Assembly: GCA_044361555.1 (NCBI GenBank)
Contig: JBIKIO010000001.1
Coordinates: 8,393 to 72,392, forward strand
Direction of reading: 5' to 3'
Origin: Opitutales bacterium
Lineage (GTDB): Bacteria; Verrucomicrobiota; Verrucomicrobiia; Opitutales; UBA953
Length of the DNA stretch: 64,000 nt
The position numbers were made by a program, and so were the translations under genes. Numbering within the stretch: the first letter of the stretch is position 1; each line of letters begins with the position of its first letter. Under the pieces are notes generated by a model. The model ran no database searches and had not been told where the DNA came from. It saw only the letters and a program-made list of their open reading frames with translations. Below are positions 15,434 to 51,624 of this stretch, one piece after another.

Positions 15434-15464
15434 ACTGACAGTGTTATAGATAACCCTCAGGTGG

Positions 15465-24760: not shown

Positions 24761-26266
24761 TCAGTGGATGATCCGGACCTCGATGACGACCGTGCCGAGC
24801 GTCAGCTTGTTGCCGTCCTTAAGGACGTGGGTCGTGTGGGACATGTGGTTGATCAAAGTCGGCTTACCGCCCACGACCTTGAAGGTGGCGACGGCCCCGG
24901 GATAGCCGGTCTTGGGCGAGATCCGGACGGTCGACTCGACGCTGGTGCCGACGAGGACCGGCGCGCCGCCGATATTGACGGTGGATTTCTCGTTCTTCGC
25001 CCAATGCACGATAAGGTAGGCCTCCCGGGCGATCACCTCAGCCATCGCCACCGCGATGCCGACCGAGAAACCGATCAGCAAGGCGCCGACGACCCGGCCG
25101 CCGAAGTCGGAAAAGCGCATCCCACCGACGATGAGCATGAACGCCACGCAGCCGACGAAACCGCCGGCGGAAGCGCAGAGCAGCGCGTTCAGTTTCGAGA
25201 TATTGGGGATCACGAAGGTCATCGCGAAGCCGAGCCCGGCGCCGACCACGACCCATGAGATGATCTTACCCAAGGCATCGGGCGTGCCTAAGGCATCAAG
25301 GCCGAAGAACAAGGTCTGCCCAAGGACGCCGGAGGCGGCGCCGATCAGGGTCCCGAGCAGCATCGACTTGAGCAGACCGGGCACACGCAACGAACCCGTC
25401 AGCATGTACTTCTGACCAGCGACCAAGGAAAGTCCGACGCCGATCGAAACCATCGAAAGCCAGAGACCCACGGACATGACACCCTTGAGATAAGAGGTGA
25501 AGGAGTGGTCCTTCTGAGCATCCTCCGCGACGCTGCCCAACATGGAGGGGCTGACCACTTCCCGTGCGACCCCCTCGAAGATACGCGCAAGGCTGCTTTC
25601 GGTCCGCCCGGAGGCATCCAGGACGAAACGCTTCCCGGGGACCTGCTCCTTGAGGAAATCGAAGGTGTCGATGATCCCTGAAGAAGCGACGACATGGACG
25701 GATTCGATGCCGCCAGCGCGAAGTTCCGAGGCCAGGCCTGAAGCCGAAACAATCTGCCCATCCGGTTCGTGCCAGGTTTCATCGGTGATGAGGACGACGA
25801 CCCGGCGCGAAGCGGGGTCAAAAGCGAGACCGGCGGCGACCTTCAATCCGTCCAACGAACTCTCCCCGCTATTGTCGCCACCGCCCGAAGCCCGGAGCCT
25901 TGTCATGCCAGAAGAGAACACCATCGGATCCGATGTGAAAACTTGGATCACTTCAGTCCCCTGGTCATAGGTGAGATCACGGAAAGTCACCAAGGCGAAG
26001 CGCATCGGCACGCCGGAGGCCTTCGACTGTCGGGTGAATTCGACGATGCTCGACCTGACGCCGTTGATCTCCTTCTGCATGCTGCCGCTGACATCCAGCA
26101 CGAACACGAGATCCACCGGCGATTTATTGGGCTGAGCGGCGGCCACCGGCACAGATTCGGTCAAAGCTGCGGCCGGTTCGCCGAGCAGCGAAAATAAGAG
26201 CCCTCCCGTCATGCCGACGACGCCGAAGACCAGCCACTTGGGCGCACGATTGAGGAAGGAACGCAT
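24761..26266 (-). CDS. Signal-anchor + vWA + polytopic TM core + C-terminal FHA-like domain (paralog 2)
   Basis: Same architecture as 23229-24746. vWA motifs VDLVFVLDVSGSMQKE and VVLITDETWHE. C-terminus: YLIVHWAKNEKSTVNIGGAPVLVGTSVESTVRISPKTGYPGAVATFKVVGGKPTLINHMSHTTHVLKDGNKLTLGTVVIEVRI. Confidence 0.9.
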   Translation of the reverse strand: MRSFLNRAPKWLVFGVVGMTGGLLFSLLGEPAAALTESVPVAAAQPNKSPVDLVFVLDVSGSMQKEINGVRSSIVEFTRQSKASGVPMRFALVTFRDLTYDQGTEVIQVFTSDPMVFSSGMTRLRASGGGDNSGESSLDGLKVAAGLAFDPASRRVVVLITDETWHEPDGQIVSASGLASELRAGGIESVHVVASSGIIDTFDFLKEQVPGKRFVLDASGRTESSLARIFEGVAREVVSPSMLGSVAEDAQKDHSFTSYLKGVMSVGLWLSMVSIGVGLSLVAGQKYMLTGSLRVPGLLKSMLLGTLIGAASGVLGQTLFFGLDALGTPDALGKIISWVVVGAGLGFAMTFVIPNISKLNALLCASAGGFVGCVAFMLIVGGMRFSDFGGRVVGALLIGFSVGIAVAMAEVIAREAYLIVHWAKNEKSTVNIGGAPVLVGTSVESTVRISPKTGYPGAVATFKVVGGKPTLINHMSHTTHVLKDGNKLTLGTVVIEVRIIH

Positions 26267-27205: not shown

Positions 27206-28639
27206 TCAGGAGAAGAGCTTCACCTCGATGGTGACGGTTCCGAGCGGCAGCTTGTTGCCGTCCCGCAGCGGGTGCGTCGCACCGGTCATGTTATGGTACA
27301 TGGTCGCCTTACCGTCCCGCATGGTGAAGGTCGCGATCGTGGCGGGGAAGCCACTGGACTTGGGAATCCGGACCGTGGATTCAGAACCGGTACCGACGAT
27401 GACCGGGGTCGCGCCGAGATTGACGGTGGTGAACTCGCCAGGCCCCCAGATCACGCGGAGATACCCTTCCCGGGCCAGCGCCTCGACGACGGCGACGGAG
27501 AGCCCGACGGCGCCTCCGAGCACCAGACAGGCGATCAGTCGACCAAAGGTCAGCGAACCGACCAGTAGGAAGGACAGCACCAATCCAGCGAGAACGCCGC
27601 CGGCAAGTCCGCCCAAGATGGCCTTCACGCGATCAAGATTCGGGATGATCAATGAAAATGCGAAACCCAGCATCCCCCCGACGACGACCCAAGCGACGAC
27701 TTTGAGCATCTTATCCGCCAAGGCTCCGTTGCCACTCGAGAAGGCGGACAGCATGCCCTGCCCCACCAATCCGGCGAAGATGCCGGCGCACAAGCTCAGG
27801 AGCAGTACCTTTCCAAACTGTGCAGGAATCCAAGAATCTGCCCCTAGCATCCTGCGCTGGGCGACGGAAATCGCGAATGAGGTTCCTAGTGCAAGACATC
27901 CTAAGGTCAGGCCGACGGATGCCACGCCAAGCAGGAAGGCGGAAATGCTCGTCTTTCGGACGACCCCGGAGGCTCGCTGGTACTCGAATTCGCAGACGAC
28001 GACGCCGCTGGTCGTGCTGGATGACACGTTCGAGACCGTGGCTGACCTCCTGATGACCTGATCCCCGATCAGCACATCAAGCTTGAAGGGAATGTCGCGC
28101 AAGTTTGAGCGACGGGTGAATAGCTGCACCTTGAACAAATACTTGCCTTCAGGAGCCTGACCTGTGGGCCAGAAGATGTGCTCGACCGGATCGAGCCGCA
28201 GGGTCGCTCCGGCGTTCTGATCTACGTCGAGCTCGCCATGAGTCGGCGAGCGGCGTCGGCCGAAATAAATTTGAGCCCCTGTGGGGTCGATACAATGGAG
28301 GTCCAAGTCATCCAAGGTCTCCCAGCTCAAGGCCGTCCGGATATCCCCTGACATACTGGCGCCGGCCGCCGCCAACCTGCTTTGGACGGCGGAGTCGAAC
28401 AACAGCGAGGGCGACGAAGAGACCTCGGCATCATTCCGCCGATAGACGCCCGGCGAGACCTCCTCCACCAATGGGCCGGAGGCGGAGCTTGCAACCGACT
28501 TTGCGGCAAAAAACTCTCCGGCACCCCAGCCTAGCAAGGCGCCGGCCGAACCGAGCAGGAAGAACAGCAGAGGCTTGGGGAGTGAAAGCAGTCTCACGCC
28601 GCCAGAGATAATGGGACCACCTGAGGTGGCAAGCCACAA
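27206..28639 (-). CDS. Signal-anchor + DUF2135/YfaP-like beta domain (tentative) + polytopic TM core + C-terminal FHA-like domain (paralog 4)
   Basis: The start is uncertain: TTG at 28639 or GTG at 28597, with no ATG before the first TM helix. N-terminal module: LSWETLDDLDLHCIDPTGAQIYFGRRRSPTHGELDVDQNAGATLRLDPVEHIFWPTGQAPEGKYLFKVQLF. C-terminus: YLRVIWGPGEFTTVNLGATPVIVGTGSESTVRIPKSSGFPATIATFTMRDGKATMYHNMTGATHPLRDGNKLPLGTVTIEVKL. Confidence 0.85.
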   Translation of the reverse strand: MWLATSGGPIISGGVRLLSLPKPLLFFLLGSAGALLGWGAGEFFAAKSVASSASGPLVEEVSPGVYRRNDAEVSSSPSLLFDSAVQSRLAAAGASMSGDIRTALSWETLDDLDLHCIDPTGAQIYFGRRRSPTHGELDVDQNAGATLRLDPVEHIFWPTGQAPEGKYLFKVQLFTRRSNLRDIPFKLDVLIGDQVIRRSATVSNVSSSTTSGVVVCEFEYQRASGVVRKTSISAFLLGVASVGLTLGCLALGTSFAISVAQRRMLGADSWIPAQFGKVLLLSLCAGIFAGLVGQGMLSAFSSGNGALADKMLKVVAWVVVGGMLGFAFSLIIPNLDRVKAILGGLAGGVLAGLVLSFLLVGSLTFGRLIACLVLGGAVGLSVAVVEALAREGYLRVIWGPGEFTTVNLGATPVIVGTGSESTVRIPKSSGFPATIATFTMRDGKATMYHNMTGATHPLRDGNKLPLGTVTIEVKLFS

Positions 28640-28672: not shown

Positions 28673-29551
28673 TCAGACCGAAGAACCAAGCCAGGAAAGT
28701 AACCGTTCATGCTCCTCCATGTGCCGGCGACAATCGGCCATACGTTCACTCCGCCGCTCTCCCGCCGGATCATCCCGCAGCGCGATCAGCCTCTGCCGAA
28801 AGAAAGCATGCATGCGGCGGAGATGCGCGACTTTGGACGGTCCTTGTTCGAGGAAATCGACCTCAAGCTTGCGCTCGAGCAGCGAACGCTCGTGCTCGTC
28901 TGTCGACGAGGTGTCGTGAAGACCGAAGATTTCGGCGACCGCGAGGCGGTCGGCCAACGCGACGATGGCATCATGCACGGGAGAACCAGCCCGGGAGGCG
29001 GCGAAGGCTTGTCCGCAGAAATGGACGAGGTCGGCCATCTCGGCGTAATTCGCTTGGGATGCGAACTGACCAAGGACTCCGTCATAGGCCGCGTCGTCCT
29101 CAGGAATCAGGCGCAAGGCCTCACCCAAGGATTGCTCGGAATCGACTCCGCAGACGGCGCTGACGGCAAGCCAGCGCGCCTCGTACCATTCACGGAAAAG
29201 ACCCAGCGGGAAACCGGTGGGATTTCCGGAAGCGATGCGGCCTACGATCCGGGCGCACAACCCAAGCCGGACCACATAGCCACGAAGCGCGATCTCGTCG
29301 CACGAGGCCATATCTGGTGCTTCCTTGAGCTTCGGCGGACGAGGCGCACCCGGCCGGAAAGAAGGTGACACCATGGCGACGGGGTCGGCGGAGGTAACGG
29401 ACGCGGTGGGCGCGGCGGCCGAGGGTACGAAACCTAGGGCCTGCCAAGCCTTCGCCAAAAGCGGAGACCATAACTTCGCGGTTAAATAGAGTCCGGCGAT
29501 GATCAGGACATAGATCAGCACGAATACCTGGACTGCCTCGGAGACGTTCAT
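28673..29551 (-). CDS. Hypothetical membrane-anchored helical protein, 292 aa
   Basis: ATG at 29551. N-terminal helix VQVFVLIYVLIIAGLYLTAKLW, a short Pro-rich linker, then a helical region with no recognised motif. Confidence 0.7.
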   Translation of the reverse strand: MNVSEAVQVFVLIYVLIIAGLYLTAKLWSPLLAKAWQALGFVPSAAAPTASVTSADPVAMVSPSFRPGAPRPPKLKEAPDMASCDEIALRGYVVRLGLCARIVGRIASGNPTGFPLGLFREWYEARWLAVSAVCGVDSEQSLGEALRLIPEDDAAYDGVLGQFASQANYAEMADLVHFCGQAFAASRAGSPVHDAIVALADRLAVAEIFGLHDTSSTDEHERSLLERKLEVDFLEQGPSKVAHLRRMHAFFRQRLIALRDDPAGERRSERMADCRRHMEEHERLLSWLGSSV

Positions 29552-29626: not shown

Positions 29627-30607
29627 TCACTTTGAGTATGGCAACTGGCCAGCCTTCATGAGGTCATTTGACGCCCTGATGGCAAAATCATCGAAGCGCT
29701 CAGGTATCTTGTGGAAATTCAGGGAGCCGTAATGGAGCGTGTAGTCGTAATCATTCGTTGTCACCCATGCTCTCTTCTGGATGCCGCCACCAGACAACGA
29801 CACGTATTGCATCACCGTCAAACTAAGCTGCCCTGAAATTTGGTCTGTGTCCTTGGGGTCGGCGCATTTCAGCGAAGCAATCAGGATGGTACCGGCGAAT
29901 TCGCTGGTATCCGATTCAGTGATTACCTGAAATCCGTTCCTGCGAAGAACAGATTCCACCCTGGCACGGACGGTATCCACGCTTACCGCATCTTCGGCCA
30001 CTAGGGACCTAACTACCACCCTTACTTTCTTATCGAAGACAGGGATCATGGACGTCGCAGCCCAGCCGACTTCACGCTTGTTGGCATCATCCCTAGCTCG
30101 GGCAAAATCAATAGCCTCAATCTGAGCTGGACTTAGCATTGCAGGCACCTCCACCCTCTTCTCTAAGGTCCTTACCACCTCCACGGGTTTCTCGACGATA
30201 CGGTCCACCGGCCGGTCTACCATCACGACATTCGGGAAAAGATAGGTGATCAGCAGTCCGATGATCGCTCCCAGGGTGACGCCTCCGGCGATCCAGCCCC
30301 AGCCGGCGACGCTCGAGGAAGAGGCCGGCGACGAGGACGGCTGCGGCACAGGAGGCTGCGCACGACGACGAGCGGAGGCCAAGGGAACAGGCATGGCGGC
30401 GACGGGCGGGAAGGCTTTCGCCGCGGCGACCTCGCCTCTCAGCTGAGTCAGCGGAGCCCAGCCGGACATCCCTTGCGTCCAGCAGAGATCCGTCCAGAGG
30501 AACTCACCGGAGTCCAGCAGCTCGACGATGCGGTCGATATCGAACTCGCCCATGACATGTCCGTTACGCGAGACGCGATATACGATGCTTCGATCGGGAG
30601 GGTTCAT
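29627..30607 (-). CDS. GYF_2 (DUF4339) domain - Pro-rich linker - TM - C-terminal alpha/beta domain protein
   Basis: SIVYRVSRNGHVMGEFDIDRIVELLDSGEFLWTDLCWTQGMSGWAPLTQL fits the GYF_2 pattern. Then AFPPVAAMPVPLASARRRAQPPVPQP and the TM helix WGWIAGGVTLGAIIGLLITYLF. Paralog of 30631-31596. Confidence 0.85.
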   Translation of the reverse strand: MNPPDRSIVYRVSRNGHVMGEFDIDRIVELLDSGEFLWTDLCWTQGMSGWAPLTQLRGEVAAAKAFPPVAAMPVPLASARRRAQPPVPQPSSSPASSSSVAGWGWIAGGVTLGAIIGLLITYLFPNVVMVDRPVDRIVEKPVEVVRTLEKRVEVPAMLSPAQIEAIDFARARDDANKREVGWAATSMIPVFDKKVRVVVRSLVAEDAVSVDTVRARVESVLRRNGFQVITESDTSEFAGTILIASLKCADPKDTDQISGQLSLTVMQYVSLSGGGIQKRAWVTTNDYDYTLHYGSLNFHKIPERFDDFAIRASNDLMKAGQLPYSK

Positions 30608-30630
30608 GAAGTTGAAAGTAAGTGAGTCGG

Positions 30631-31596
30631 TCAGCGGGGCTGAGAAGATCGCTGCAACGCGGTCGAGACTTCGGCGGATAGCTCATCGGTGAGCAATGGA
30701 AGCAGCGATAGCGTGTCAGCGTTGTATCCCGTGAAATACTTGGAACGTCGCCACACCGGATAGTCCCCTCTTCGCCAGGTCCTGTCCTTGCCGGCATGGA
30801 TATTCTGGCTGAGGGTCATGCCAATGTGACCTGAAATGTCGTCCTGCGGCCCGAAAAGCTGGATTTCCAAGACCAGACTGGTCTCGCTGTCTTCGCCAGA
30901 CGCGGCGACCCGGAACCCCTTGGAAACGAGAAGTTGCTCCACCCTAGCCCTGACCTTCTCTTCCGGGACCCCGCCGTTCGCGACGCTCCCCGTCACCTTG
31001 ACGGCGATCCGGATCACTGAACCCGCGAAATGGGGGAAAATCATATCCTCGTCACTACGCGCCATGCGTGCGGCCTCGACGGCGGCACCGAGGCCGAGGC
31101 GACGGATATCATCCGCCGTGATGGCTGAACCTGCCGAAGTCGCGACCACCCTTTCGTAGGGGACATCGACGACCCGATTGACGATGACGGTTTTCTCCCG
31201 AGGGAACATGACGGTCCAGAGGTAACCGCTGACAAGTCCGATGATCACCGGAAGAATAAGTGCGGTCAAACCAGCCGATGGCGCGGACTGCGATTGGCTT
31301 CGTCCAGCCGTCTTGGTCGCCTGACGTTTACGCGGCGGAGGGGTCTTGATCTTGGGTCTTGGGGCGACCGGCTGCGGAGGATGTGCCTTCGAAGGCGGGA
31401 AAGCTCTGGCGGCTTCGACCTCCTTCTTAAGGGAAGCCAAGACATCCCAATCGGCCATCCCGTCGGTGTAGTACAGATCCGCCTCCGAGAACTCACCGCA
31501 AGCCAGCAGCTCGGCGATGCGATCGATCTCGAAATCGCCCATGACATGGCCGTTACATGATATGCTGTAACTTATGTTGCGGTCAGGAGGTTTCAT
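30631..31596 (-). CDS. GYF_2 domain - Pro-rich linker - TM - C-terminal domain protein; first gene of the minus-strand array
   Basis: The track start 31617 is a TTG. The ATG at 31596 gives MKPPDRNISYSISCNGHVMGDFEIDRIAELLACGEFSEADLYYTDGMADWDVLASL, which parallels the paralog's start MNPPDRSIVY. Then AFPPSKAHPPQPVAPRPKIKTPPPRKRQ and a TM helix. Confidence 0.85.
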   Translation of the reverse strand: MKPPDRNISYSISCNGHVMGDFEIDRIAELLACGEFSEADLYYTDGMADWDVLASLKKEVEAARAFPPSKAHPPQPVAPRPKIKTPPPRKRQATKTAGRSQSQSAPSAGLTALILPVIIGLVSGYLWTVMFPREKTVIVNRVVDVPYERVVATSAGSAITADDIRRLGLGAAVEAARMARSDEDMIFPHFAGSVIRIAVKVTGSVANGGVPEEKVRARVEQLLVSKGFRVAASGEDSETSLVLEIQLFGPQDDISGHIGMTLSQNIHAGKDRTWRRGDYPVWRRSKYFTGYNADTLSLLPLLTDELSAEVSTALQRSSQPR

Positions 31597-31707
31597 GCTC
31601 GGAGGACAGGCATCCAATCAAAGAAGTCCTTGCCCCTTGTCGAGAACAGCCACCCGGGCGGTCTCTTTTAGATTGCCTGTAAGCGAAGGAAGAAGGCATC
31701 TTCGGGC
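31597..31707. promoter_or_regulatory. Divergent intergenic region; probable promoter region for the minus-strand array and the plus-strand GYF gene
   Basis: This is the 111-nt gap between divergently oriented starts (31596 minus, 31708 plus). No convincing -35/-10 boxes were identified by eye. Confidence 0.3.
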
Positions 31708-32616
31708 ATGACCCTGCCCGTCGCAGAACCAAGATACGATGTGGCCCGAAAAGGGACGGCGCTTGGCTCCTTTAGGCTCCTTGAAATCGCCACCGAAATC
31801 GACTCAGGCAATCTACGCTGGACCGATGATTGCTGGACCGAAGGGATGGAATCCTGGGCCAAGCTAGGCGACATCAGGGACCTGCTCGAATCTATCGGCA
31901 CGTCCGGAAAGCCGGCGACCGGCATGAGCCGCCTTCCGCTTTACGTCGGTATCGCTGTCCTGAGCCTTTTTCTGGTCGGCGCCTCGGCCTATCTTCTGAT
32001 GTCCGCTGATTCGACGGAAGTAACTGCGGACACTCCCGCTGCTCCCTTAGCGAGCGCTACGTCGCCGGCGCGCGTCGCCCTGGACAAACCACTGCAAAGG
32101 AGCCTGAGCGAAGCTCAGGACAAGATCTCGATGCTAGTCTCGGCCTCCTTCCAGACGAACAAGAGCGTGACCGGGACGGCGACCTTCACCCACCGCTACT
32201 ACAAGGAAATCGGCAATCGCATCCCGCTCCGGGTCGACATCGACGCCGATGGCCGGTGTCACCTTCTGACCTTCTATCAGGGAAGGAACTGGATCTTCCA
32301 CCGACAGCTTCGGTTCGTCATCGGCCAGCAGACCCTGGAGACAGGCGTCATCGAACCCCACCTGCGCAGCCGTTCAATCGGAGAAGATAACACGGTCAGC
32401 GAATCATGCCGCTTCGTGGGCCCTGCTGACGCCAAGTTGGTCGGACGCCTTGCGGCCGCCGCCGACTCACCGATCGCCTTCCAAATGGTCGGCCTCAAGC
32501 CGCTCGAAGTACCTCTTTCCTACGAGACGAAAGTCGCGATCAGGGAGTCGCATGAACTCGCCGAGCTCCTGGCGCAACGCCGCAAACTCCTCGCCGACCT
32601 CGGAATCAGACCCTGA
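31708..32616 (+). CDS. GYF_2 domain - TM - C-terminal domain protein
   Basis: YDVARKGTALGSFRLLEIATEIDSGNLRWTDDCWTEGMESWAKLGDI. TM helix LPLYVGIAVLSLFLVGASAYLLM. GGAAGAAGG lies about 12 nt upstream of the ATG. Confidence 0.85.
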   Translation: MTLPVAEPRYDVARKGTALGSFRLLEIATEIDSGNLRWTDDCWTEGMESWAKLGDIRDLLESIGTSGKPATGMSRLPLYVGIAVLSLFLVGASAYLLMSADSTEVTADTPAAPLASATSPARVALDKPLQRSLSEAQDKISMLVSASFQTNKSVTGTATFTHRYYKEIGNRIPLRVDIDADGRCHLLTFYQGRNWIFHRQLRFVIGQQTLETGVIEPHLRSRSIGEDNTVSESCRFVGPADAKLVGRLAAAADSPIAFQMVGLKPLEVPLSYETKVAIRESHELAELLAQRRKLLADLGIRP

Positions 32617-32619
32617 AGC

Positions 32620-34347
32620 TCAGGGACGGCGTCCGCACTGGAGAGGAAATTCGCCGAACCGGGCCGAACCGGCGGATAAAAACATCAAGACGGGCGGTGA
32701 ACTCAGATCGTTCAGCTTGAAGCAGAGCGTGTAAGGAGCGACTTCGCGGCGTGACGTCTCATCGGTGAATGTGACGATACCCGATACGGAATAAAAACGG
32801 GTGATGCCGTCGTCCCAGCACTTACGCACCACGGACACGTCCTCTTCGGCTATTTCAATGACGCGCAATTTCTGCATCAGCAAGGTTCGGCTACGGTTGA
32901 AGACCTCAGGCTTGGAGAGAGGCCTCTCCTGGCTTGTCGCCGTATCGAAGGGTTTGGCGGAAGCCGGCGCCGCGCCGAGCGACCGCAGGGTGCGATACAA
33001 GGAGAGGTCGGCCAGCTGACGGAACATCATCGGCGGAATATTGCCTGTCTGGAAATGATCGAAAAGGACCTCAGGCGCGCCTTCCCAATCCGCGGCGATC
33101 TCGGTCTCGGCGAACATCCGGAGCCTTCTTCCGGCGTAGGGCTCCGTGGCGCCGGCACGAGCCGCCACCGCATAATAAGCCCAGGCCGTGGCCGGCGAAG
33201 CCGGATAGACCCTGCCGGCGTCGAAATGCATGCCCAACAGCAACAAGGCGTCGGCGTCTCGTTTGCCGGCGGCGATCTCGAAGAGCCGGAGGGCCTCTTC
33301 TTTGTCCGGCTTAGAGAAGCCAAAGCCGAAATAATAGGCGACAGCTCTCGCATAAGCCGCCCGGGCGTCGAGCACGGTATCGGCAGCGAGGGGGGCCTTG
33401 GCAGGGAAAGCGATCCGCACCGTATCAGGCATCAGGACTTTCTCGGCTAGCGCCTTGTCCCGGAGACCCTTGGCAATCAATGGCGCCAGAGCTCCGGCTT
33501 CGAGGACGTGCAGATGGCGGATCAGACCCGCCTCAGGTAAGGACGCTTCATTGGCCTCGTCCTTTAAACTGACGAAATCAGCCCCCGCTACTTGCACCGC
33601 TTCAGGCAATGCGAGGGCACGCAGGGCGAGGCCGAAAGCGCGATCATGAAATGAATTGGCGTCATCCAGATAAAGCTGCGCCAGCGGGGCCAGCGCGGCC
33701 TTCTCGCCTTGTATCGCGGCTTTGGTGAACCACTGCCGGGCACTTTCAAGGTTCTTAGGTACGTGTTTCCCGTCCATATAACCTGCTCCCACCTCCAATT
33801 GAGCGGCCGAGCTGCCATCGCCTGCGTCTCGAAGCCTGCCACGGAAAGCCATCACCCTGGGCGAATCCCACTTCTGAGGAAGCTCGCCGCTGTACACCAC
33901 CCGACGGCTCAAAGTCTCCGAGTATGTCGGGCGACCATTGCAGGCCTTGCACACCCAGTGCACTTGGTATCCGAGATTCGCCCCCTCGCGCCCCTCGAAA
34001 CGGACGCCACTTCCGACCCCGGAGCAGGTGGAGCACTTGCGCGTGACCACGAAGGTGACGGTGGGATTCTGCTTCGCTATGTAGTGGATCAGGGCGATCC
34101 GCGTGGCGTCGTTGTAAGGAAGGCGCTTGCCGGTGGACACGACGATTTCACCGTCTGCGGTATACTCAAGACCCTCGGCGAGCTGATTGAAAACCGCAGA
34201 GTACTCCCCCGCGGTTGCCGTCTTCAGATCAAGATCCTCCGCCTCCAAGGAGCACACCCTCGCCGACAAAAGCAAGAAGCCGGCAAGGAGGATGGAGTAT
34301 GCCCGGGAAAGAGCGCCTCGGCTTGGGGCATATCTGTGCTCGTGCAT
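32620..34347 (-). CDS. Secreted Sel1-repeat protein with CxxC zinc-knuckle module
   Basis: Signal-peptide-like N-terminus SILLAGFLLLSARVCSLEA. CSTCSGVGSG...WVCKACNGRP. Sel1-type repeat GKHVPKNLESARQWFTKAAIQGEKAALAPLAQLYLDD. Convergent with 31708-32616, with 3 nt between the stops. Confidence 0.85.
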   Translation of the reverse strand: MHEHRYAPSRGALSRAYSILLAGFLLLSARVCSLEAEDLDLKTATAGEYSAVFNQLAEGLEYTADGEIVVSTGKRLPYNDATRIALIHYIAKQNPTVTFVVTRKCSTCSGVGSGVRFEGREGANLGYQVHWVCKACNGRPTYSETLSRRVVYSGELPQKWDSPRVMAFRGRLRDAGDGSSAAQLEVGAGYMDGKHVPKNLESARQWFTKAAIQGEKAALAPLAQLYLDDANSFHDRAFGLALRALALPEAVQVAGADFVSLKDEANEASLPEAGLIRHLHVLEAGALAPLIAKGLRDKALAEKVLMPDTVRIAFPAKAPLAADTVLDARAAYARAVAYYFGFGFSKPDKEEALRLFEIAAGKRDADALLLLGMHFDAGRVYPASPATAWAYYAVAARAGATEPYAGRRLRMFAETEIAADWEGAPEVLFDHFQTGNIPPMMFRQLADLSLYRTLRSLGAAPASAKPFDTATSQERPLSKPEVFNRSRTLLMQKLRVIEIAEEDVSVVRKCWDDGITRFYSVSGIVTFTDETSRREVAPYTLCFKLNDLSSPPVLMFLSAGSARFGEFPLQCGRRP

Positions 34348-34431
34348 CTTCGCAGACTAAGATCGCCGGACGTCCCGCCACAAGCAACTAAACGGGGTTT
34401 GAGTTTCTTGATTAATATCATAGCAAATGGC

Positions 34432-35178
34432 ATGGACGACAAGATTCACGTGAGCCGCAACCGGGATTCCTTGGGAGTCTTCACCGAGGAGCAGTTGAAG
34501 ATGGCGCTCGGCAGGGGCAGCGTCTACGCCGGCGATTTTTGCTGGAAGGCGGGCATGAAGGAGTGGGTCACGATCAGCCAGGCCTACCCTCACCTCATTC
34601 CCGCGACCCCTTCGGCCCATCAATCCCACCCTCCCTTCCCCTCCGCCAGGACATCGCCGCAGCCGCCCGTCCACAACAGCCTGCCTCCGGCGCCCCTTTC
34701 GCCTACAGGCTCCTTGCAAAGCACGGTCGGACTGCCGACCGGGGGCGATCGGTTCTGCGCCTACCTGCTGGACAGCCTCTTCATGATGCTTCTCTGCTGC
34801 CTCTTCATGGTGCCGGCCGTCGTCTTCCTCGCGGTCATCTCCGAAGCCGGCAGCATGCGCTCGAGCGTCATGCGGTCCTACGTCCAACTGCTGACCTATG
34901 GATGCGGCTTCTTCGGCCCCTTGCTCTATTACGGAATCATGGGCAACACCTCGCAGAACGCCACCTGGGGTCAGCGCATCATGGGATTCAAGATGGTGGA
35001 CGCACGCACGGGAGCGGCTCCGGATAGTGGACTGGTCTGGAAGTGGGCCCTCTACCGCGGCCTCATCACCTCCTGCTGCGGATGCATCGGACTGCTCTTC
35101 TTCATACCGATCCTGAACGATGCCCGGAAACAATCCGCCTTCGACAGCTGGGCGGACATCCTGATGGTCAAACGATAA
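34432..35178 (+). CDS. GYF_2 - Pro-rich linker - RDD-family membrane domain protein
   Basis: The true start is taken as ATG 34432 (MDDKIHVSRNRDSLGVFTEEQLKMALGRGSVYAGDFCWKAGMKEWVTISQAYP). RDD-like GDRFCAYLLDSLFMMLL and GQRIMGFKMVD. The upstream 241 codons of track ORF 33709-35178 are antisense to the Sel1 gene. Confidence 0.85.
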   Translation: MDDKIHVSRNRDSLGVFTEEQLKMALGRGSVYAGDFCWKAGMKEWVTISQAYPHLIPATPSAHQSHPPFPSARTSPQPPVHNSLPPAPLSPTGSLQSTVGLPTGGDRFCAYLLDSLFMMLLCCLFMVPAVVFLAVISEAGSMRSSVMRSYVQLLTYGCGFFGPLLYYGIMGNTSQNATWGQRIMGFKMVDARTGAAPDSGLVWKWALYRGLITSCCGCIGLLFFIPILNDARKQSAFDSWADILMVKR

Positions 35179-35197
35179 GCCCGCGGCCGCCGCCCGA

Positions 35198-36094
35198 TCA
35201 AGGCGTCAGCGGGACGACATTAGGCCTGAAGAAAGGCCCCAACACCCATCGGATGAGATACCAGGCGGCGATAGGGACGAGGCTAAGCGAGAACCCGGCC
35301 ACCAAGGACATGTTGAGCAACCCCGCGGGCTGCACCCATCGGGGCAAGTCGAGGATAAGGTCAGCGTAGGCCGCGTGCTGGACGGACAGCCATTGGAGCG
35401 AGAGCAAGTAGGCGAAGCTGAAGGAAGCGACGACGCATGCCGGAGCCCAAAGGCATGCACGGTAGATCCTGTCGCGCAGCCTGACGCTTGTTGGAAATAC
35501 CAGCCAGGCGGCGATGAGCGGTAAGGTCAGGATCGCCCACGTCGCTCGGAAAAAACCGGTCAGCTCATGCCAGCTCGAGGGCGCGAAGTCTTCCGGCATG
35601 AGCGTCGGCTTGGCACTCGGAGGAGAGGCCGTGCGCCCATTATACTGCCATTCGACCGGAAGACCGGAGACGCTGACCATCTCATTCGAGTTCCAGGTCT
35701 GGATCAGTGTTTCGGCGTCTAATTTTCCCGGACCGTAGACTACCTTGGGGTCTTTGGGGGCGAACCGAGTCAGCACGGCCTCAAGCGAGGCCTTTTCATA
35801 AGAGTAGTTGTTGTAAGAACTGACCCGGTACGCGCTGGGCATCCCCACTAAGGCGTATTCTTTCCTTAGGAATGGCCTGTCTTCGTGCAGATTCCAGCAC
35901 ACCACCCCGGCCGCGACGAGGGATCCGATGAAAGCCAGCCGGAGGCATGCCTCGAAAGACTTGTTCAGAAACGCGAACATCCCGGCGCTGAACAGGGCAC
36001 TGAACAGGCGACCGATGGACCGGAACACCCAGCCGATACCACGGAAGAAAAAGAGGGTGAGGCGGACGAGGGGCACGCGGGACAATTGCTCCAA
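35198..36094 (-). CDS. Polytopic membrane protein, unknown function
   Basis: Several hydrophobic helices (LAFIGSLVAAGVVCW; ILTLPLIAAWLVF; WAPACVVASFSFAYLLSL; LLNMSLVAGFSLSLVPIAAWYLI). The start is uncertain: TTG at 36094, TTG at 36085 or GTG at 36076. Confidence 0.65.
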   Translation of the reverse strand: MEQLSRVPLVRLTLFFFRGIGWVFRSIGRLFSALFSAGMFAFLNKSFEACLRLAFIGSLVAAGVVCWNLHEDRPFLRKEYALVGMPSAYRVSSYNNYSYEKASLEAVLTRFAPKDPKVVYGPGKLDAETLIQTWNSNEMVSVSGLPVEWQYNGRTASPPSAKPTLMPEDFAPSSWHELTGFFRATWAILTLPLIAAWLVFPTSVRLRDRIYRACLWAPACVVASFSFAYLLSLQWLSVQHAAYADLILDLPRWVQPAGLLNMSLVAGFSLSLVPIAAWYLIRWVLGPFFRPNVVPLTP

Positions 36095-36183
36095 GGCCCA
36101 AACACTGTAAAGAATTAAGAAAACGGCCGGCCACGCGGACGGCTTATCATTGACCCGATCGCCTCCTCGGAGGAAAATTCAAC

Positions 36184-36843
36184 ATGAATTATCATGTCAG
36201 TCAAAGGGGCGTTAATATAGGTAAATATAGCGAGACGGACATTCTCAACAACCTATCCATCGGTACCTTCACTTACGCTGATCATTACTGGGCCGTAGGT
36301 ATGCCCGGGTGGATGCCGCTCTCACAGTTCAGGCCTGACTCCGCCGCCGGCGCAACCCGCCGACCGTCGTCTCAACAACCCGCTGCGCAGCCCGCCACGC
36401 ATGCGACCGGCGGCCGCCCATCGCATGCCACCGGCCACGCGCATGCCCCGTCCATAGCGACACCATCCTCGAACGCGCAGGTATTTGGTCTGCTGGGCGG
36501 CGGGCTTATGGCGCTGGGTGTATTCGGTCCGGCGGCCGAAATGGGCAAGTTGGAATTCTCCATCATTGCCAATGGAAACACCAAAGGAGTCATCCTGCTC
36601 GCGCTCGGGTGCGTCGGTGCCCTGCTTGCCATGGTTCGCCTGCACGTCTTCACGTGGATACCTGCGGTCGTCATCGCACTGGTCCTAGGGGACATGTGCC
36701 TCAAGCTTGTCGATGCGCCTTCCGCCACGCTGTTCGGCACCACGATCCGCCTCACGCCGGGATGGGGGCTCATAGTCATGCTCGCCGGCAACGCCTTATT
36801 GTTTTGCGCGGCATGGGTGGGGTCGAATGAAAAGAAACCCTGA
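36184..36843 (+). CDS. GYF_2 - Pro/Ala-rich linker - multi-TM protein
   Basis: MNYHVSQRGVNIGKYSETDILNNLSIGTFTYADHYWAVGMPGWMPLSQF. GGAGGA lies about 10 nt upstream of the ATG. The C-terminal half is hydrophobic helices. Confidence 0.85.
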   Translation: MNYHVSQRGVNIGKYSETDILNNLSIGTFTYADHYWAVGMPGWMPLSQFRPDSAAGATRRPSSQQPAAQPATHATGGRPSHATGHAHAPSIATPSSNAQVFGLLGGGLMALGVFGPAAEMGKLEFSIIANGNTKGVILLALGCVGALLAMVRLHVFTWIPAVVIALVLGDMCLKLVDAPSATLFGTTIRLTPGWGLIVMLAGNALLFCAAWVGSNEKKP

Positions 36844-36870
36844 CCGTCATTACATATACCAGTATCAGTC

Positions 36871-37644
36871 ATGAACCGAATCCGCCTTCCGCTCTTTGCT
36901 TCCTTCCTTTTCCTGGTCGGGTGCGTATCACCCTGGGAGAAGTTCTACTCCGGCGTCGAGACGCCTGCGGACTATGCCTACGGAGGCTCGACCCTCTGTC
37001 GTCGCGTGGATAACCCAGAGGAAGTAAAAGCATACCTGCGGGAAGGCTATCTGGTCTTCGGCGAATCCAGCTTCAACGCCGGCGGAGGCGTCTCCCTGGA
37101 CAACCTTCAGACCCAAGGGGAAAAGGTCGGGGCAGATATCGTGCTCTTCTGGGCCGGCAACGCCCAGACCAGCCAGAGCGCCATGGTGATCCCGCAGTTC
37201 AATCCTGGGACGCAGCAGACCACCTACGTCAACGGCTACGGCAGCGGCGGCTCGTTTTCGGGCACTGCCACGACCTATACCCCAGGAACCTACAGCACCC
37301 AGGTCGTACCGGTCACCGTCACCCGGATGGACTATTCGGCGATCTTCCTGCGCAGACGCATCACCAAGCCCGCCCTCGGCGTCAGTGTCCGCGAGATGAC
37401 GGCAACGGAAGCGTCGGCCCTCGGCACCAACTCGGCGGTGGCCATCGAACTCGTGATCCGGAACACGCCGGCATTCGAAGCCGACGTCATGGAGGGAGAC
37501 TTCCTGCTGGAGATCGACGGAACCAAAGTCCCCGACGTCCGCTCGTTTCTGGAGATCATCGCATCGAAACGCGGCCAGACCATCCGCGCGCTCATCTCGC
37601 ACCGAGGGACACGCCTTTACAAGATGATCAGGACCAATCCCTGA
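36871..37644 (+). CDS. Lipoprotein with C-terminal PDZ-like domain
   Basis: Lipobox-like LFASFLFLVGC. C-terminal LGVSVREMTATEASALGTNSAVAIELVIRNTPAFEADVMEGDFLLEIDGTKVPDVRSFLEII resembles a PDZ domain. Confidence 0.8.
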   Translation: MNRIRLPLFASFLFLVGCVSPWEKFYSGVETPADYAYGGSTLCRRVDNPEEVKAYLREGYLVFGESSFNAGGGVSLDNLQTQGEKVGADIVLFWAGNAQTSQSAMVIPQFNPGTQQTTYVNGYGSGGSFSGTATTYTPGTYSTQVVPVTVTRMDYSAIFLRRRITKPALGVSVREMTATEASALGTNSAVAIELVIRNTPAFEADVMEGDFLLEIDGTKVPDVRSFLEIIASKRGQTIRALISHRGTRLYKMIRTNP

Positions 37645-37650
37645 GCACGC

Positions 37651-38157
37651 TCAAGGACGGCTGAGAAGGTTCTGTCCGGTCGGCGAATTGGCCGGCACCA
37701 GACGGTCGCTCTTGCAGGCGCGGCAGACCTGACCGCGGGTCGTGAGACGCCAGATCGAATAGATGAGGCCGGGCACGCACATGAACAGCCAGAGGACGAC
37801 TTCGATCAGGAAGCTGCCCTTGGTATGGCTCTCGGTGCCCGTGCTGCCGCACTGAGCGCAGACCATCATATCCGCTGGATAGGTTCGGACCGGACGGTTG
37901 ACCGGCGGAGGGAGGGCCGAGCCGGCCGTCGGCGGCGGCGGAGCCACCTGGTTCCGCACGGCGGCTTTCGGCACATGCCGCATCCACTCTTCATGGGCGC
38001 TCACCCGGGCCCACGCCGCCATCCCCGCCGTCCAATAGTAGTCGGTCGGCAGGACCTGCCCCGTCGCCACCTTCGCGATCATCTCATTGCTGTCAAAGGT
38101 GCCGATGACCTGGCCGTTGCGAGATACCTGATACCTGCCCGGAGTAGTCATGGCCAT
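37651..38157 (-). CDS. GYF_2 - Pro-rich linker - zinc-ribbon-flanked TM protein
   Basis: RYQVSRNGQVIGTFDSNEMIAKVATGQVLPTDYYWTAGMAAWARVS. VAPPPPTAGSALPPPVNRP. CAQCGS...FLIEVVLWLFMCVPGLIYSIW...CRACKS. Confidence 0.85.
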   Translation of the reverse strand: MAMTTPGRYQVSRNGQVIGTFDSNEMIAKVATGQVLPTDYYWTAGMAAWARVSAHEEWMRHVPKAAVRNQVAPPPPTAGSALPPPVNRPVRTYPADMMVCAQCGSTGTESHTKGSFLIEVVLWLFMCVPGLIYSIWRLTTRGQVCRACKSDRLVPANSPTGQNLLSRP

Positions 38158-38277
38158 GGCGCTTTAATCTATGATTACATTGGGATATCAATATAAATAA
38201 CCCCATGGCAGCCGCTGGTCGAGGGTTGGCATGCAATTTACATTGATGGTGTCTGACGCTTACGCAGGCTCATCGAG

Positions 38278-39033
38278 ATGTCCGTCCTCTCCGTGTTCGA
38301 TGGCCCGGTTGTCTGGCTCCTGTTATGCTTCATCTGCCCGGCTGTGACGGTCTTGCTCATCCTCAAAAGCATACGAAAAGCTCCCCCGCAAAGCCCCGCC
38401 CTCCAGATGACCAACCCCCAGTCCGCTCAAGGTGGCACGATCGCCGACCATCAGGTTTCACGCAATGGTTCGATGCTCGCCACTCACAGCGAGGCCGACC
38501 TCCGCCGGCTGCTCGCATCGGGTCAATATCACCCCACGGATTTCTATTGGAAGCCTGGCATGGCCGCCTGGGCTCCGCTTTCATCGCTACCCGCTCCAGC
38601 GCCCGGAACAGCCGCCACCCCTTCAGCGAGCCAGCCCGGCCAACGGCTCGCCATCAGAGGCACCGTGATCAGCTTCAATATCCAGAGCGGTACAGGCCTG
38701 ATCAGCGGCTTGAACGGCATGCGCTACAACTTCGTCACTGCCAACTGGGGCTCGCCGACCGTGCCGCCCTCCACCGGACTGCAGGTGGAGTTCGAGGTCA
38801 ACGGCTCCCACGCCGAACATATCTTCCCGGCGAACGGACACTCCGGTGGCACGAGCTCGAGCGAATTCTACCGCAGTAGCGACAACGTCTTGGTCTCAGG
38901 AGTCTGCGCCGGCCTAGCTCATAAGTGGAATGCCGACCCCGTGCTCATCCGCATCGCCATGCTCTTCATCCCGCTCGGCTGGATCTTCTACCTCATCGGG
39001 AGCATGAGCTGGTCGGCCCGCCCGACGCGCTGA
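38278..39033 (+). CDS. TM - GYF_2 - cold-shock/OB-like - PspC-domain protein
   Basis: HQVSRNGSMLATHSEADLRRLLASGQYHPTDFYWKPGMAAWAPLSSL. GTVISFNIQSGTGLISGLNGMRYNFVTANW...LQVEFEVNGSHAEHIF is CSD-like. FYRSSDNVLVSGVCAGLAHKWNADPVLIRIAMLF matches the PspC signature. Confidence 0.85.
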   Translation: MSVLSVFDGPVVWLLLCFICPAVTVLLILKSIRKAPPQSPALQMTNPQSAQGGTIADHQVSRNGSMLATHSEADLRRLLASGQYHPTDFYWKPGMAAWAPLSSLPAPAPGTAATPSASQPGQRLAIRGTVISFNIQSGTGLISGLNGMRYNFVTANWGSPTVPPSTGLQVEFEVNGSHAEHIFPANGHSGGTSSSEFYRSSDNVLVSGVCAGLAHKWNADPVLIRIAMLFIPLGWIFYLIGSMSWSARPTR

Positions 39034-39064: not shown

Positions 39065-39889
39065 ATGTTCGACCCGCTCATTGAAAGAGACCTAGCCGTC
39101 AGGCTAGGGGAAGAAGCCGTCGCCATCTCTCAGAATGGCGGCTACGCTGGCCCGTCTGGCCAGGTCGACATCTCCCTGCAGCTGGCGGAGTCTTTAAGGC
39201 TGACACGATACTACGGACCAGACCACGAGCATGCGCAAGCAAAGCCCGGGACTTTCCCTACTCGCTTCGAGGTCACCAATGAAACGACCCTCTCAGCCCA
39301 TCGTCGCCATCAGACCAAAGGCCATGTCGCGGTCTCCCTGAATTTCGCCTCGGCCACCCATCCCGGCGGCGGCTTCCTGCGCGGCGCACGGGCGCAAGAG
39401 GAGTATCTCTGCCGTTCCAGCGGCCTGTATCTGGCGATCAAGGACTGCCCGATGTACGCTTACCATCGGGCCCAAGGTGAGCATCTTTACACCGATGCCA
39501 TGATTTACTCGCCGGACGTTCCAGTCTTCCGTGACGATGAGCACGCGCTGCTGCCCTCCCCCTTCCAAGCTTCTTTCATCACCTCCGCCGCCCCTTTGGC
39601 CAGGCTGTTACGCGATGAAGACTTCGAACACCTGAATGAGGTGCTTTATGTCAGAATCATCAAGATTCTTTCGGTGGCTCAGCTCCATGGGCACGACTCT
39701 TTGGTCCTCGGAGCATGGGGATGCGGGGCCTTCGGAAATGACGGCCATCAGGTCGCCGGCCTCTTTCACCGGGCACTGAGCGCAGACTTCGCCGGCGCGT
39801 TCAAGGAGGTCACCTTCGCGATCGTGGACACGACGACCGAACGGCGCTTCATCGGGCCGTTCGCCAAGCGCTTTTCACCGGGCCCCTGA
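39065..39889 (+). CDS. TIGR02452 / microbial PARG-like macro-domain protein
   Basis: LNFASATHPGGGFLRGARAQEEYLCRSSGLY and LVLGAWGCGAFGND match the signature I recall for the DUF2263 / microbial-type PARG family. Confidence 0.8.
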   Translation: MFDPLIERDLAVRLGEEAVAISQNGGYAGPSGQVDISLQLAESLRLTRYYGPDHEHAQAKPGTFPTRFEVTNETTLSAHRRHQTKGHVAVSLNFASATHPGGGFLRGARAQEEYLCRSSGLYLAIKDCPMYAYHRAQGEHLYTDAMIYSPDVPVFRDDEHALLPSPFQASFITSAAPLARLLRDEDFEHLNEVLYVRIIKILSVAQLHGHDSLVLGAWGCGAFGNDGHQVAGLFHRALSADFAGAFKEVTFAIVDTTTERRFIGPFAKRFSPGP

Positions 39890-46310: not shown

Positions 46311-46479
46311 GGGATTTTGCCGTTAATCGGCCTTAATGGGTCATTTTCAGATAGAAACGCCGACGAGACCCCGATGTCAACATAATGTTAACACTTGTAA
46401 GTATCTATTTAACAGCGCTCTTCTTTTTAAGCCGCCCAACCCCTTGCTCCTGGGTCACCCAATACCCATACCTACGGAA

Positions 46480-51618: not shown

Positions 51619-51624
51619 GCCGCC

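Follow-up and report, generated by a model that had tools for sequence, protein, structure and literature searches.

Seven GYF-domain membrane proteins encoded beside a conserved TerY-P/MoxR gene array in Opitutae

To our knowledge, GltJ of Myxococcus xanthus is the single characterised example of a bacterial GYF protein. Here we compare with it, and with the other closest described systems, a 64 kb stretch of DNA from an Opitutales bacterium (contig JBIKIO010000001.1; the whole stretch is called the window), in which seven genes for GYF-domain membrane proteins, named g1 to g7, lie together at positions 29627-39033 beside a gene array of the TerY-P/MoxR kind. GltJ belongs to the Agl-Glt gliding machinery and, as the main text of PMC11135422 describes it, consists of a cytoplasmic zinc ribbon (ZnR), linker and GYF domain (PDB 7z3c, a nuclear magnetic resonance structure), a transmembrane (TM) segment, a periplasmic stalk and a TonB-C-like domain. 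Experiments showed micromolar binding of its GYF domain to a proline-rich sequence of AglZ, through the beta-sheet face, the surface on which bacterial GYF domains are most conserved (PMC11135422). GltJ works side by side with its paralogue GltG, which carries a forkhead-associated (FHA) domain, in one Myxococcus envelope machine (PMC11761067). According to the same main text (Attia et al. 2024, PMC11135422), bacterial GYF_2 proteins typically place an N-terminal GYF domain before a membrane or receptor module, and about 44% have an adjacent zinc ribbon. The zinc ribbon is C-terminal to the GYF domain in bacteria of the Planctomycetes-Verrucomicrobia-Chlamydiae (PVC) clade, the class is over-represented in Planctomycetes-Verrucomicrobia, and the genes frequently stand in conserved operons with receptor-like TM proteins (PMC11135422).

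The second point of comparison is the TerY-P triad. We know of no function assigned to such triads or to their conserved polyproline tails. The triad comprises a TerY protein with a von Willebrand factor A (vWA) domain, a PP2C phosphatase and a Ser/Thr kinase (Anantharaman et al. 2012, as related in PMC11090510). The union of a GYF domain with a membrane architecture is already described in the published text drawn on here; what the present locus adds is that the cluster is so dense, and that it is coupled, in a conserved manner, to an array of TerY-P, MoxR and six-TM (6TM) genes with an FHA fold.

An earlier note on this DNA, made from its letters alone, had proposed seven open reading frames (ORFs) in which one small adaptor domain of the GYF_2 type is combined with diverse membrane modules. 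All seven ORFs were found at the positions it gave, and all seven encode membrane-tethered proteins of that kind:
29627-30607, minus strand: g1, GYF_2 34.7 bits; in its AlphaFold2 (AF2) model, GYF domain (residues 9-65), disordered Pro-rich linker, TM helix (104-123), repeat linker and alpha/beta domain (160-318)
30631-31596, minus strand: g2, paralogue of g1 and first gene of the array, GYF_2 15.1 bits (under the gathering score); GYF domain, Pro-rich linker, TM segment and LptE/PelC-like C-terminal domain
31708-32616, plus strand: g3, GYF_2 28.3 bits; GYF domain, short linker, TM segment and a C-terminal domain of ~200 aa; transcribed divergently from g2
34432-35178, plus strand: g4, GYF_2 30.0 bits, RDD 42.6 bits; GYF domain, Pro-rich linker and RDD membrane module
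36184-36843, plus strand: g5, GYF_2 19.1 bits (under the gathering score); GYF domain, P/S/T/A/Q-rich linker and about four TM segments
37651-38157, minus strand: g6, GYF_2 38.9 bits; GYF domain, conserved PPPP/PPP linker, CxxC, hydrophobic helix and CxxC, a zinc ribbon interrupted by a membrane segment (weak Pfam zinc-ribbon matches)
38278-39033, plus strand: g7, GYF_2 30.3 bits, PspC 45.5 bits (Pfam) and 34 bits (NCBIfam); N-terminal TM segment, GYF domain (about residues 58-110), linker, beta-rich segment and PspC domain

The domain assignment was checked at the level of sequence profile and of fold. In a scan with GYF_2 (Pfam PF14237, also DUF4339), the gathering score of 25.8 bits is passed by g1, g3, g4, g6 and g7, and the proposed membership stood directly for these five; g2 and g5 stay below it. 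We accept the latter two as divergent members because they align to the other five across the whole domain and are conserved in orthologues, where the N-terminal GYF residues of g2 are kept and the two domains are 72-89% conserved. A hidden Markov model (HMM) built from the seven domains gave exactly seven matches in a six-frame translation of the window (85-98 bits; the next scored 7.7 bits). Since it recovers only these seven, the remaining ~54 kb are without a GYF domain; within 29627-39033, the domain occurs in seven of ten consecutive genes. Searched against the PDB, the seven-domain profile had the GltJ GYF domain 7z3c as its sole significant match (E=1.6e-5). The AF2 model of g1, the one protein of the seven that was modelled, has a mean predicted local distance difference test score (pLDDT) of 78; its GYF fold (residues 9-65, pLDDT 82-92) runs strand-strand-helix-strand-helix and matches 7z3c (Foldseek probability 1.0, template-modelling score TMt 0.55). 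The domain is thus a bona fide bacterial GYF domain. The start of g2 merits a comment: metagenome gene callers begin it eighteen codons late (303 aa; L001 16616-17527 and equivalents, where L numbers denote homologous loci in other assemblies), cutting into the GYF domain, and public annotations show no GYF_2 for g2 because the called start truncates it. An alternative TTG start lies at 31617.

The membrane modules agree in nearly every case with what the earlier note had read. The identical layout of g1 and g2 reflects full-length paralogy (32% identity), and g3 has only its GYF domain in common with g1, its C-terminal domain being different. The RDD module of g4, the roughly four hydrophobic segments of g5, the CxxC-TM-CxxC arrangement of g6 and the PspC domain of g7 were each recovered. 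Two details did not survive. The label 'CSD-like' for the middle of g7 found no Pfam match at E<=0.1 and no PDB sequence match, and NCBIfam gave nothing for this segment either; the C-terminal domain of g3 was likewise without a match in Pfam, NCBIfam or PDB sequence searches. The GYF domain, said to be N-terminal throughout, is not so in g7, where it lies between an N-terminal TM segment, conserved at the protein level in L010 and L016, and the TM segment of PspC. Pro-rich linkers were claimed for almost all of the proteins: six of the seven have linkers with 14-26% proline, as against 4.9% proline in the other proteins of the window, and the short linker of g3 has 6%. The GYF domains are predicted to lie on the cytoplasmic face, since there is no signal peptide and basic residues precede the TM segment.

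In g1, the C-terminal domain matches lipoproteins of the LptE/PelC/PqiC/DUF330 group (Foldseek, E about 3e-4, TMt 0.42-0.56), and the second disordered stretch is made of (V/I)(E/D)(K/R)PV repeats. The g1-type stalk as a whole (window 30150-30250, g1 residues about 128-155) follows the pattern (V/I)(E/D)(K/R)(P/I)V; a copy of it in L026 (14590-14680) weakly matches Pfam IMCp, the alveolin 'EKIVEVP' repeat, at 19 bits.

The seven genes form an ancient, maintained set of distinct paralogues, to judge from sequence comparison. The domains are mutually 18-37% identical, except for g1 and g2 at 55%, whereas orthologous domains are 53-98% identical (70-98% in L010, 53-91% in L011). Recent local duplication was considered and rejected on these values, g1/g2 alone being comparatively recent, and the set is not a recent local amplification because each paralogue has its own conserved orthologues in metagenome-assembled genomes (MAGs) of related Opitutae. 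Conservation across at least six of the seven paralogue groups is limited to seven positions, and every paralogue has a signature of its own that its orthologues preserve. For g4 there are 31 orthologue clusters, down to 45% identity, from freshwater and wastewater MAGs of Verrucomicrobiota/Opitutae. The closest species representative, L010 (JBEGSF010000002.1, g4 86% identical), carries the full set of seven GYF genes in unchanged order. L016, whose g1 homologue is 47% identical, holds g1 and g3-g7, six of the seven paralogue types with a single copy of the g1/g2 type; Coraliomargarita sp. Ww55 (L007/L011/L015, g4 55% identical) holds g1, a second g1-like copy, g3, g4 and g5. Orthologues of g3 occur in L010, L015, L016 and L026, and the linker and cysteines of g6 are conserved in L010 and L016.

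The earlier note also held that two of the GYF genes head a large TerY-P/MoxR array. They do: g2 and g1 open a co-directional short-gap run, an uninterrupted series of 19 minus-strand genes whose measured intergenic gaps are 0-75 bp. After g2 and g1 come X292, T477, T308, vWA501, vWA505, u179, vWA221, vWA242, the PP2C phosphatase, the Ser/Thr kinase and TerY, and then the distal part:
28673-29551, minus strand: X292, N-terminal TM segment, RPGAPRPP motif and helical domain; always directly downstream of g1
27206-28639, minus strand: T477, 6TM with C-terminal FHA fold; extra domain of ~190 aa after the first TM helix
26272-27198, minus strand: T308, 6TM with C-terminal FHA fold
24761-26266, minus strand: vWA501, 6TM with FHA fold; vWA domain (Pfam VWA) inserted after the first TM helix
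23229-24746, minus strand: vWA505, 6TM with FHA fold; vWA domain (Pfam VWA) inserted after the first TM helix
22693-23232, minus strand: u179, small soluble protein, weak vWA
22025-22690, minus strand: vWA221, 221 aa, Pfam VWA 29.8 bits; occupies what looks like a gap between u179 and vWA242
21210-21938, minus strand: vWA242, small soluble TerY-like protein; C-terminal tail GGAPPPPPGAPSPGPTSAGNPPLPPPPPQLT
19011-21209, minus strand: PP2C phosphatase, PP2C_2 78 bits; N-terminal TM segments
17500-19008, minus strand: Ser/Thr kinase, 502 aa, Pkinase 39 bits
16457-17494, minus strand: TerY, VWA 55 bits; TerY_C 24 bits (under its gathering score)
15473-16456, minus strand: ORF of ~327 aa, occupying what looks like a gap of 1 kb from TerY to MoxR; assigned to no family
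14360-15472, minus strand: bpMoxR AAA+ ATPase, 170 bits
between bpMoxR and the giant ORF, minus strand: distal unknown proteins of 496, 916 and 141 aa
3-9698, minus strand: giant ORF of >3232 aa, the end of the array, running off the window

The triad is complete, with a TerY-like vWA protein, a PP2C phosphatase and a Ser/Thr kinase encoded next to one another in an order that is kept in relatives. The run is probably co-transcribed; a scan for promoters and terminators gave nothing informative on operon boundaries. X292 had no Pfam or NCBIfam match. The giant ORF had no Pfam match at E<=0.001, and neither it nor the proteins of 496, 916 and 141 aa, encoded beside bpMoxR, matched a Pfam vWA or propeller family; in the ternary systems of Kaur 2020 (PMC7159879) a bpMoxR ATPase comes with a dedicated vWA and a beta-propeller component. 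At the place of vWA221, relatives have a paralogue.

The link between the GYF genes and the array, which the earlier note had also drawn, is real and conserved in relatives. The order g(2)-g1-X292-T477-T308-vWA(TM)-u179-vWA-vWA242-PP2C-kinase-TerY-MoxR is kept in L015, L016, L022, L025, L027 and L031, even where g1 is only about 47-56% identical. The order of the distal part is kept in L022, L025, L027 and L031, and in these same four loci the ~327 aa ORF is conserved (tblastx 2e-59). Across lineages in which g1 is 47-78% identical, vWA242 is 92-96%, the kinase 84-88% and TerY 83-95% identical.

These data bear on the simplest explanation of the cluster, namely that it is a set of paralogues left by ancient tandem duplication and domain shuffling, with no functional tie between the genes or to the TerY-P array. 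Such an origin would suit the tandem duplicate g1/g2 and the alternating strands of g3-g7, and GYF domains fused to RDD, PspC or zinc ribbon modules are widespread and independent in bacteria according to the main text of PMC11135422. We consider it very unlikely nonetheless that nothing more ties these genes together. Neutral gene order should decay, yet five to seven GYF genes remain syntenic with the array at 55% identity of g4 and 47% of g1; g2 and g1 are packed in operon-like fashion against X292 and the FHA-fold genes; and an independent fusion of a GYF domain to the 6TM-FHA module adjoins vWA and PP2C genes in a distant organism.

That module is common to T477, T308, vWA501 and vWA505, with 40-41% identity between paralogues. 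The AF2 model of T308 (pLDDT 81, predicted TM-score 0.69) has six TM helices and a beta domain, and every one of its best 28 PDB matches in Foldseek is an FHA domain (probability 1.0, TMt 0.6-0.74; Rv0020c, GarA/OdhI, CT664 and YscD). On this modelling the FHA fold is established. Pfam FHA matches none of the window proteins and four of 118 family representatives. The family as a whole counts 1635 cluster representatives at E<=1e-3. Among the 118 representatives scanned, 30 carry a vWA domain, and one each carries a TIR, kinase, DUF2510, zinc-ribbon or GYF_2 domain. The last, P0192 from a distant metagenomic organism, joins a GYF_2 domain (25.8 bits), a Pro-rich linker and 6TM-FHA in one protein, and its gene lies directly upstream of vWA and PP2C genes. 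The fusion independently ties GYF_2 to the 6TM-FHA module.

What might the GYF domains bind? The window was scanned for proline-rich motifs because the GltJ GYF domain binds a proline-rich sequence. Such motifs are rare in the window proteins and concentrated in the array. By analogy with GltJ, the candidate ligands are the tail of vWA242, the RPGAPRPP motif of X292, a PLPPPP segment in a vWA-DUF805 protein beyond g7, and the linkers of the GYF proteins themselves. The first two are strongly conserved. In lineages with g1 at 47-55% and X292 at 54-55% identity, vWA242 together with its tail stands at 92-96%, and RPGAPRPP (R66-P73) of X292 is invariant in four lineages at an overall identity of 54-80%. 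In L026, the X292 homologue has LPPPLPPPLP in place of RPGAPRPP. Outside the array, the window has one further polyproline run (PPRKDTPPPPPPRT), around residue 40 of a 443 aa protein (53985-55316, minus strand) with no Pfam match.

The vWA242 tail has two parts. Distant TerY-like vWA tails, 39 of which were read from 64 distant loci (L033-L096), also have the terminal LPPPPPE motif, whereas an extension of ~30 aa is confined to the GYF-linked clade; the comparison took in the tails of 16 close loci. The last 45 residues contain 14-16 prolines in the GYF-linked clade, as against about five in most of the 39 distant tails (4-9 overall). As a GYF-specific ligand the whole tail was therefore rejected in part: LPPPPPE is universal and only the extension of ~30 aa is clade-specific. 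Since LPPPPPE is universal in distant TerY-like vWA proteins with no GYF_2 gene detected nearby, this motif has another, GYF-independent role. The fuller pattern FFKWVS.SI...(about 20 aa)...LPPPPPE(I/V)xVV is apparently universal at TerY-like vWA C-termini and occurs in TerC, StiP, PRTase_2 and TerY-P contexts (L033-L096; window 21210-21300). We know of no described partner for it.

The reading that we favour, and in which our confidence is about even, is that the locus encodes the layer of cytoplasmic adaptors in a signalling apparatus that is embedded in the envelope and conserved in Opitutae, the GYF heads docking the proline-rich segments of array partners. The data show domain identities, folds, gene order, conservation and one independent GYF-6TM-FHA fusion; topology, co-transcription, the GYF-polyproline pairing and the direction of signalling are inferred. 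First, the GYF domains would bind proline-rich sequences of array partners as the GltJ domain binds AglZ, the best candidates for partners being the near-invariant, extended polyproline tail of vWA242, RPGAPRPP of X292 and possibly each other's linkers. Second, this binding would bring the kinase/phosphatase/FHA switch and the envelope modules, each with its own kind of anchor, together on a single membrane platform; the modules joined to the GYF domains are a predicted periplasmic domain of LptE/PelC type on a stalk of repeats (g1 and g2), another predicted periplasmic domain (g3), RDD (g4), a 4TM region (g5), a split zinc ribbon (g6) and PspC (g7). Third, signals would pass from the periplasmic or membrane modules to the TerY-P phospho-switch, or the reverse.

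The earlier note had envisaged a single common ligand. We are somewhat inclined to think that seven domains of diversified specificity would fit at least as well, because the domains are so far apart in sequence (18-37% identity), share only seven positions and bear paralogue-specific signatures. A bolder version, which we think unlikely, is that a diversified GYF battery reads proline-rich 'address tags' on the vWA tail, X292 and the linkers, coupling membrane modules to a vWA/FHA/kinase/phosphatase/MoxR switch in an unrecognised type of platform. If true, this would be a bacterial functional counterpart of eukaryotic membrane scaffolding by polyproline adaptors (GYF/SH3/WW), and the polyproline tail that TerY proteins universally share would for the first time have a proposed partner.

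Several observations weigh against the favoured reading. Two of the seven domains, g2 and g5, fall under the Pfam cut-off. The genes g3-g7 lie on both strands with other genes between them, and only conserved proximity links them to the array. In L026, g1-like proteins without a GYF domain are encoded downstream of the kinase gene and the array persists, so at least part of the system can do without the GYF domain. The correlation of the tail extension with GYF amounts to one phylogenetic event. In the FHA-fold domains, canonical phosphothreonine-binding residues are not obviously conserved: 14 sequences, compared by eye, have no conserved GR or SxxH and instead share invariant T253, R255, H287 and N293. 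GYF/6TM-FHA fusion as a recurrent theme had to be rejected, one of 118 representatives being too rare. Finally, no GYF_2 gene was detected in the 64 distant TerY-like vWA loci by a regular-expression prefilter, which catches nine of nine known positives but could miss atypical GYF domains, followed by a Pfam scan at E<=0.0035 of the 56 of 473 ORFs that passed. The seven-domain HMM was rejected as a general GYF detector; since it misses the Pfam-positive GYF_2 of P0192, a negative from the HMM alone would be invalid for these loci.

Two further features of L026, a locus of lower GC content, concern the same genes. Its two GYF-less g1-like proteins (14462-16071) stand in place of TerY, and its g3 homologue has a degenerate GYF domain in which the W..GM..W core is lost.

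Three other genes are interleaved with the GYF genes:
32620-34347, minus strand: Sel1-repeat protein, Pfam Sel1 46.7 bits; N-terminal hydrophobic segment
35198-36094, minus strand: multi-TM protein of 298 aa, hydrophobic segments
36871-37644, plus strand: PDZ protein, Pfam PDZ_2 29.7 bits; lipoprotein-like N-terminus, judged by eye

The Sel1-repeat gene is syntenic in L007/L015, L016 and L026, the multi-TM gene (no Pfam or NCBIfam match) in L001-L007, L010 and L016, and the PDZ gene in L001-L006, L010 and L016. Exported Sel1 and PDZ proteins, conserved with the GYF genes among which they are encoded, would suit an alternative in which the locus specifies an envelope-spanning structural or transport machine. 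Here g1 and g2 would be tethers of the TonB/GltJ type, the kinase, phosphatase and FHA proteins would regulate, the GYF domain would mainly localise, and the other GYF proteins would join Sel1 and PDZ in an apparatus for envelope biogenesis or export. The similarity of the g1 C-terminal domain to LptE, PelC and PqiC, lipoproteins of outer-membrane machines, points the same way, as do its TonB-like repeat stalk, an order of parts that is also GltJ's as described in PMC11135422 and PMC11761067, and the retention of GYF-less g1-like copies in the L026 array. The fold match, however, is moderate (TMt 0.42-0.56, root-mean-square deviation 5-9 Å, 10-16% identity), the window has no transporter, secretin, ExbBD/TolQR-type motor or polysaccharide synthesis gene, and this machine leaves unexplained why seven different small membrane modules carry a GYF domain. 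We think it quite unlikely to be the right account.

To the right of g7 the following genes were annotated:
39065-39889, plus strand: microbial poly(ADP-ribose) glycohydrolase (PARG), PARG_cat_microb 151 bits
39875-40981, minus strand: TerY-like vWA domain joined through PLPPPP to a DUF805 membrane domain, DUF805 38 bits
41194-43362, minus strand: SNF2 helicase, PADLOC DrmD 403 bits over the full length, DpdE 357 bits

PARG and the vWA-DUF805 gene form a variable insert beside g7 and are missing there in L010 (13850-17000 compared) and L016. The vWA half of the latter is 32% identical to vWA242 (E 3e-21) and has a degenerate metal ion-dependent adhesion site (MIDAS) motif. Near the SNF2 helicase lie genes for a DUF2779 protein (46336-48369) and a metallophosphoesterase, and further on an HSP70-TerB-peptidase M48 block at 50080-53971 on the plus strand. 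In the window this block is separated from the helicase by CCA/poly(A) polymerase, DUF2779 and two unknown genes; in L003 (1-3526) it is directly beside it. In strain variants, an eighth GYF-like fragment adjoins the helicase (L003 4579-4710, minus strand; L004 925-1053, minus strand). The fragment is 44 aa from stop to stop, scores 30.5 bits and is probably a gene remnant; the same contigs have truncated ORF calls for g4 and g5 (L003) and for g4 and g1 (L004).

A further reading is one of conflict or defence. The array might be an anti-phage or stress-triggered system in which the GYF proteins, with their RDD, PspC, split zinc ribbon and 4TM modules, serve as membrane effectors; GYF-peptide contacts would recruit or release them so that they perturb the membrane, in the manner of abortive infection. 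TerY-P-like modules are stand-alone anti-phage systems (Gao 2020, as reported in PMC11090510), the bpMoxR type found here at 170 bits was defined in PMC7159879, and in planctomycetes pairs of GYF domains are fused to trypsin or TM-rich regions and linked to GAP1-N2 systems (PMC7159879). One member of the 6TM-FHA family carries a TIR domain, the neighbours have a defence flavour (the DrmD/DpdE-like SNF2 helicase, PARG and HSP70-TerB-M48), and the right flank varies between strains and species. The array itself behaves otherwise: it is vertically stable and strongly conserved, unlike typical defence islands with their fast turnover. Against PADLOC-DB v2 its proteins showed generic kinase similarity and no defined system, g1-g7 contain no nuclease, toxin or other recognisable effector domain, and the window has no mobile-element markers or tRNA genes. 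A defence function therefore seems to us rather doubtful, if worth keeping in view.

The locus offers a compact, conserved test bed, with seven diversified GYF domains beside strongly conserved proline-rich motifs, and its kinase/phosphatase/FHA-fold switch could serve as a read-out. It allows a direct test of what bacterial GYF domains and TerY tails bind. Should the GYF-polyproline pairing be true, it would give a mechanism for the DUF4339 proteins of PVC bacteria and suggest membrane docking of TerY-type vWA proteins; should it be false, the locus would be a tidy but unexceptional case of domain shuffling among small membrane proteins.

How, then, does the locus compare with the systems described? 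With the conflict systems of Kaur 2020 (PMC7159879) it has in common the bpMoxR-type ATPase and GYF domains fused to TM-rich regions, as in planctomycetes; it differs in that no GAP1 GTPase, beta-propeller, recognised effector-associated or Death-like domains were detected here, and in that sequence conservation is high, not diversifying. With respect to the GYF_2 survey, g6 fits the pattern of a ZnR C-terminal to the GYF domain in the PVC clade, whereas the main text of PMC11135422 contains neither batteries of five to seven GYF genes nor a linkage to TerY-P/vWA/FHA/MoxR genes. In the literature searched (the supplementary figures of PMC11135422 and Anantharaman 2012 lay outside its scope), we found no description of a battery of five to seven GYF proteins heading or flanking a 6TM-FHA/vWA/TerY-P/MoxR array, or of a GYF-6TM-FHA fusion.

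In comparison with GltJ, g1 and g2 have their parts in the same order, with a predicted cytoplasmic GYF domain, a disordered linker, a single TM segment, a stalk and a periplasmic domain. The canonical eukaryotic G-Y-F residues are absent, as in nearly all bacterial GYF domains. GYF and FHA-fold proteins are encoded together, as GltJ and GltG work together. The GYF proteins here are not GltJ orthologues, since NCBIfam gliding_GltJ (NF033761) reaches 17.3 bits, in the GYF region only, against a cut-off of 450. The window has no Agl/Glt, MglA/MglB or AglZ genes, the C-terminal domain of g1 is LptE/PelC-like and not TonB-C, no zinc ribbon precedes the GYF domain, and there are seven GYF proteins here in place of one, with TerY-P/vWA/MoxR genes as partners. 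As to TerY-P, its three components are adjacent and co-directional here, TerY has the metal-binding TerY_C region, and vWA242 keeps the C-terminal LPPPPP motif of its family. In contrast to the described triad, PP2C bears N-terminal TM segments, and the triad is set inside a larger array with four 6TM-FHA proteins, extra vWA proteins, MoxR and GYF.

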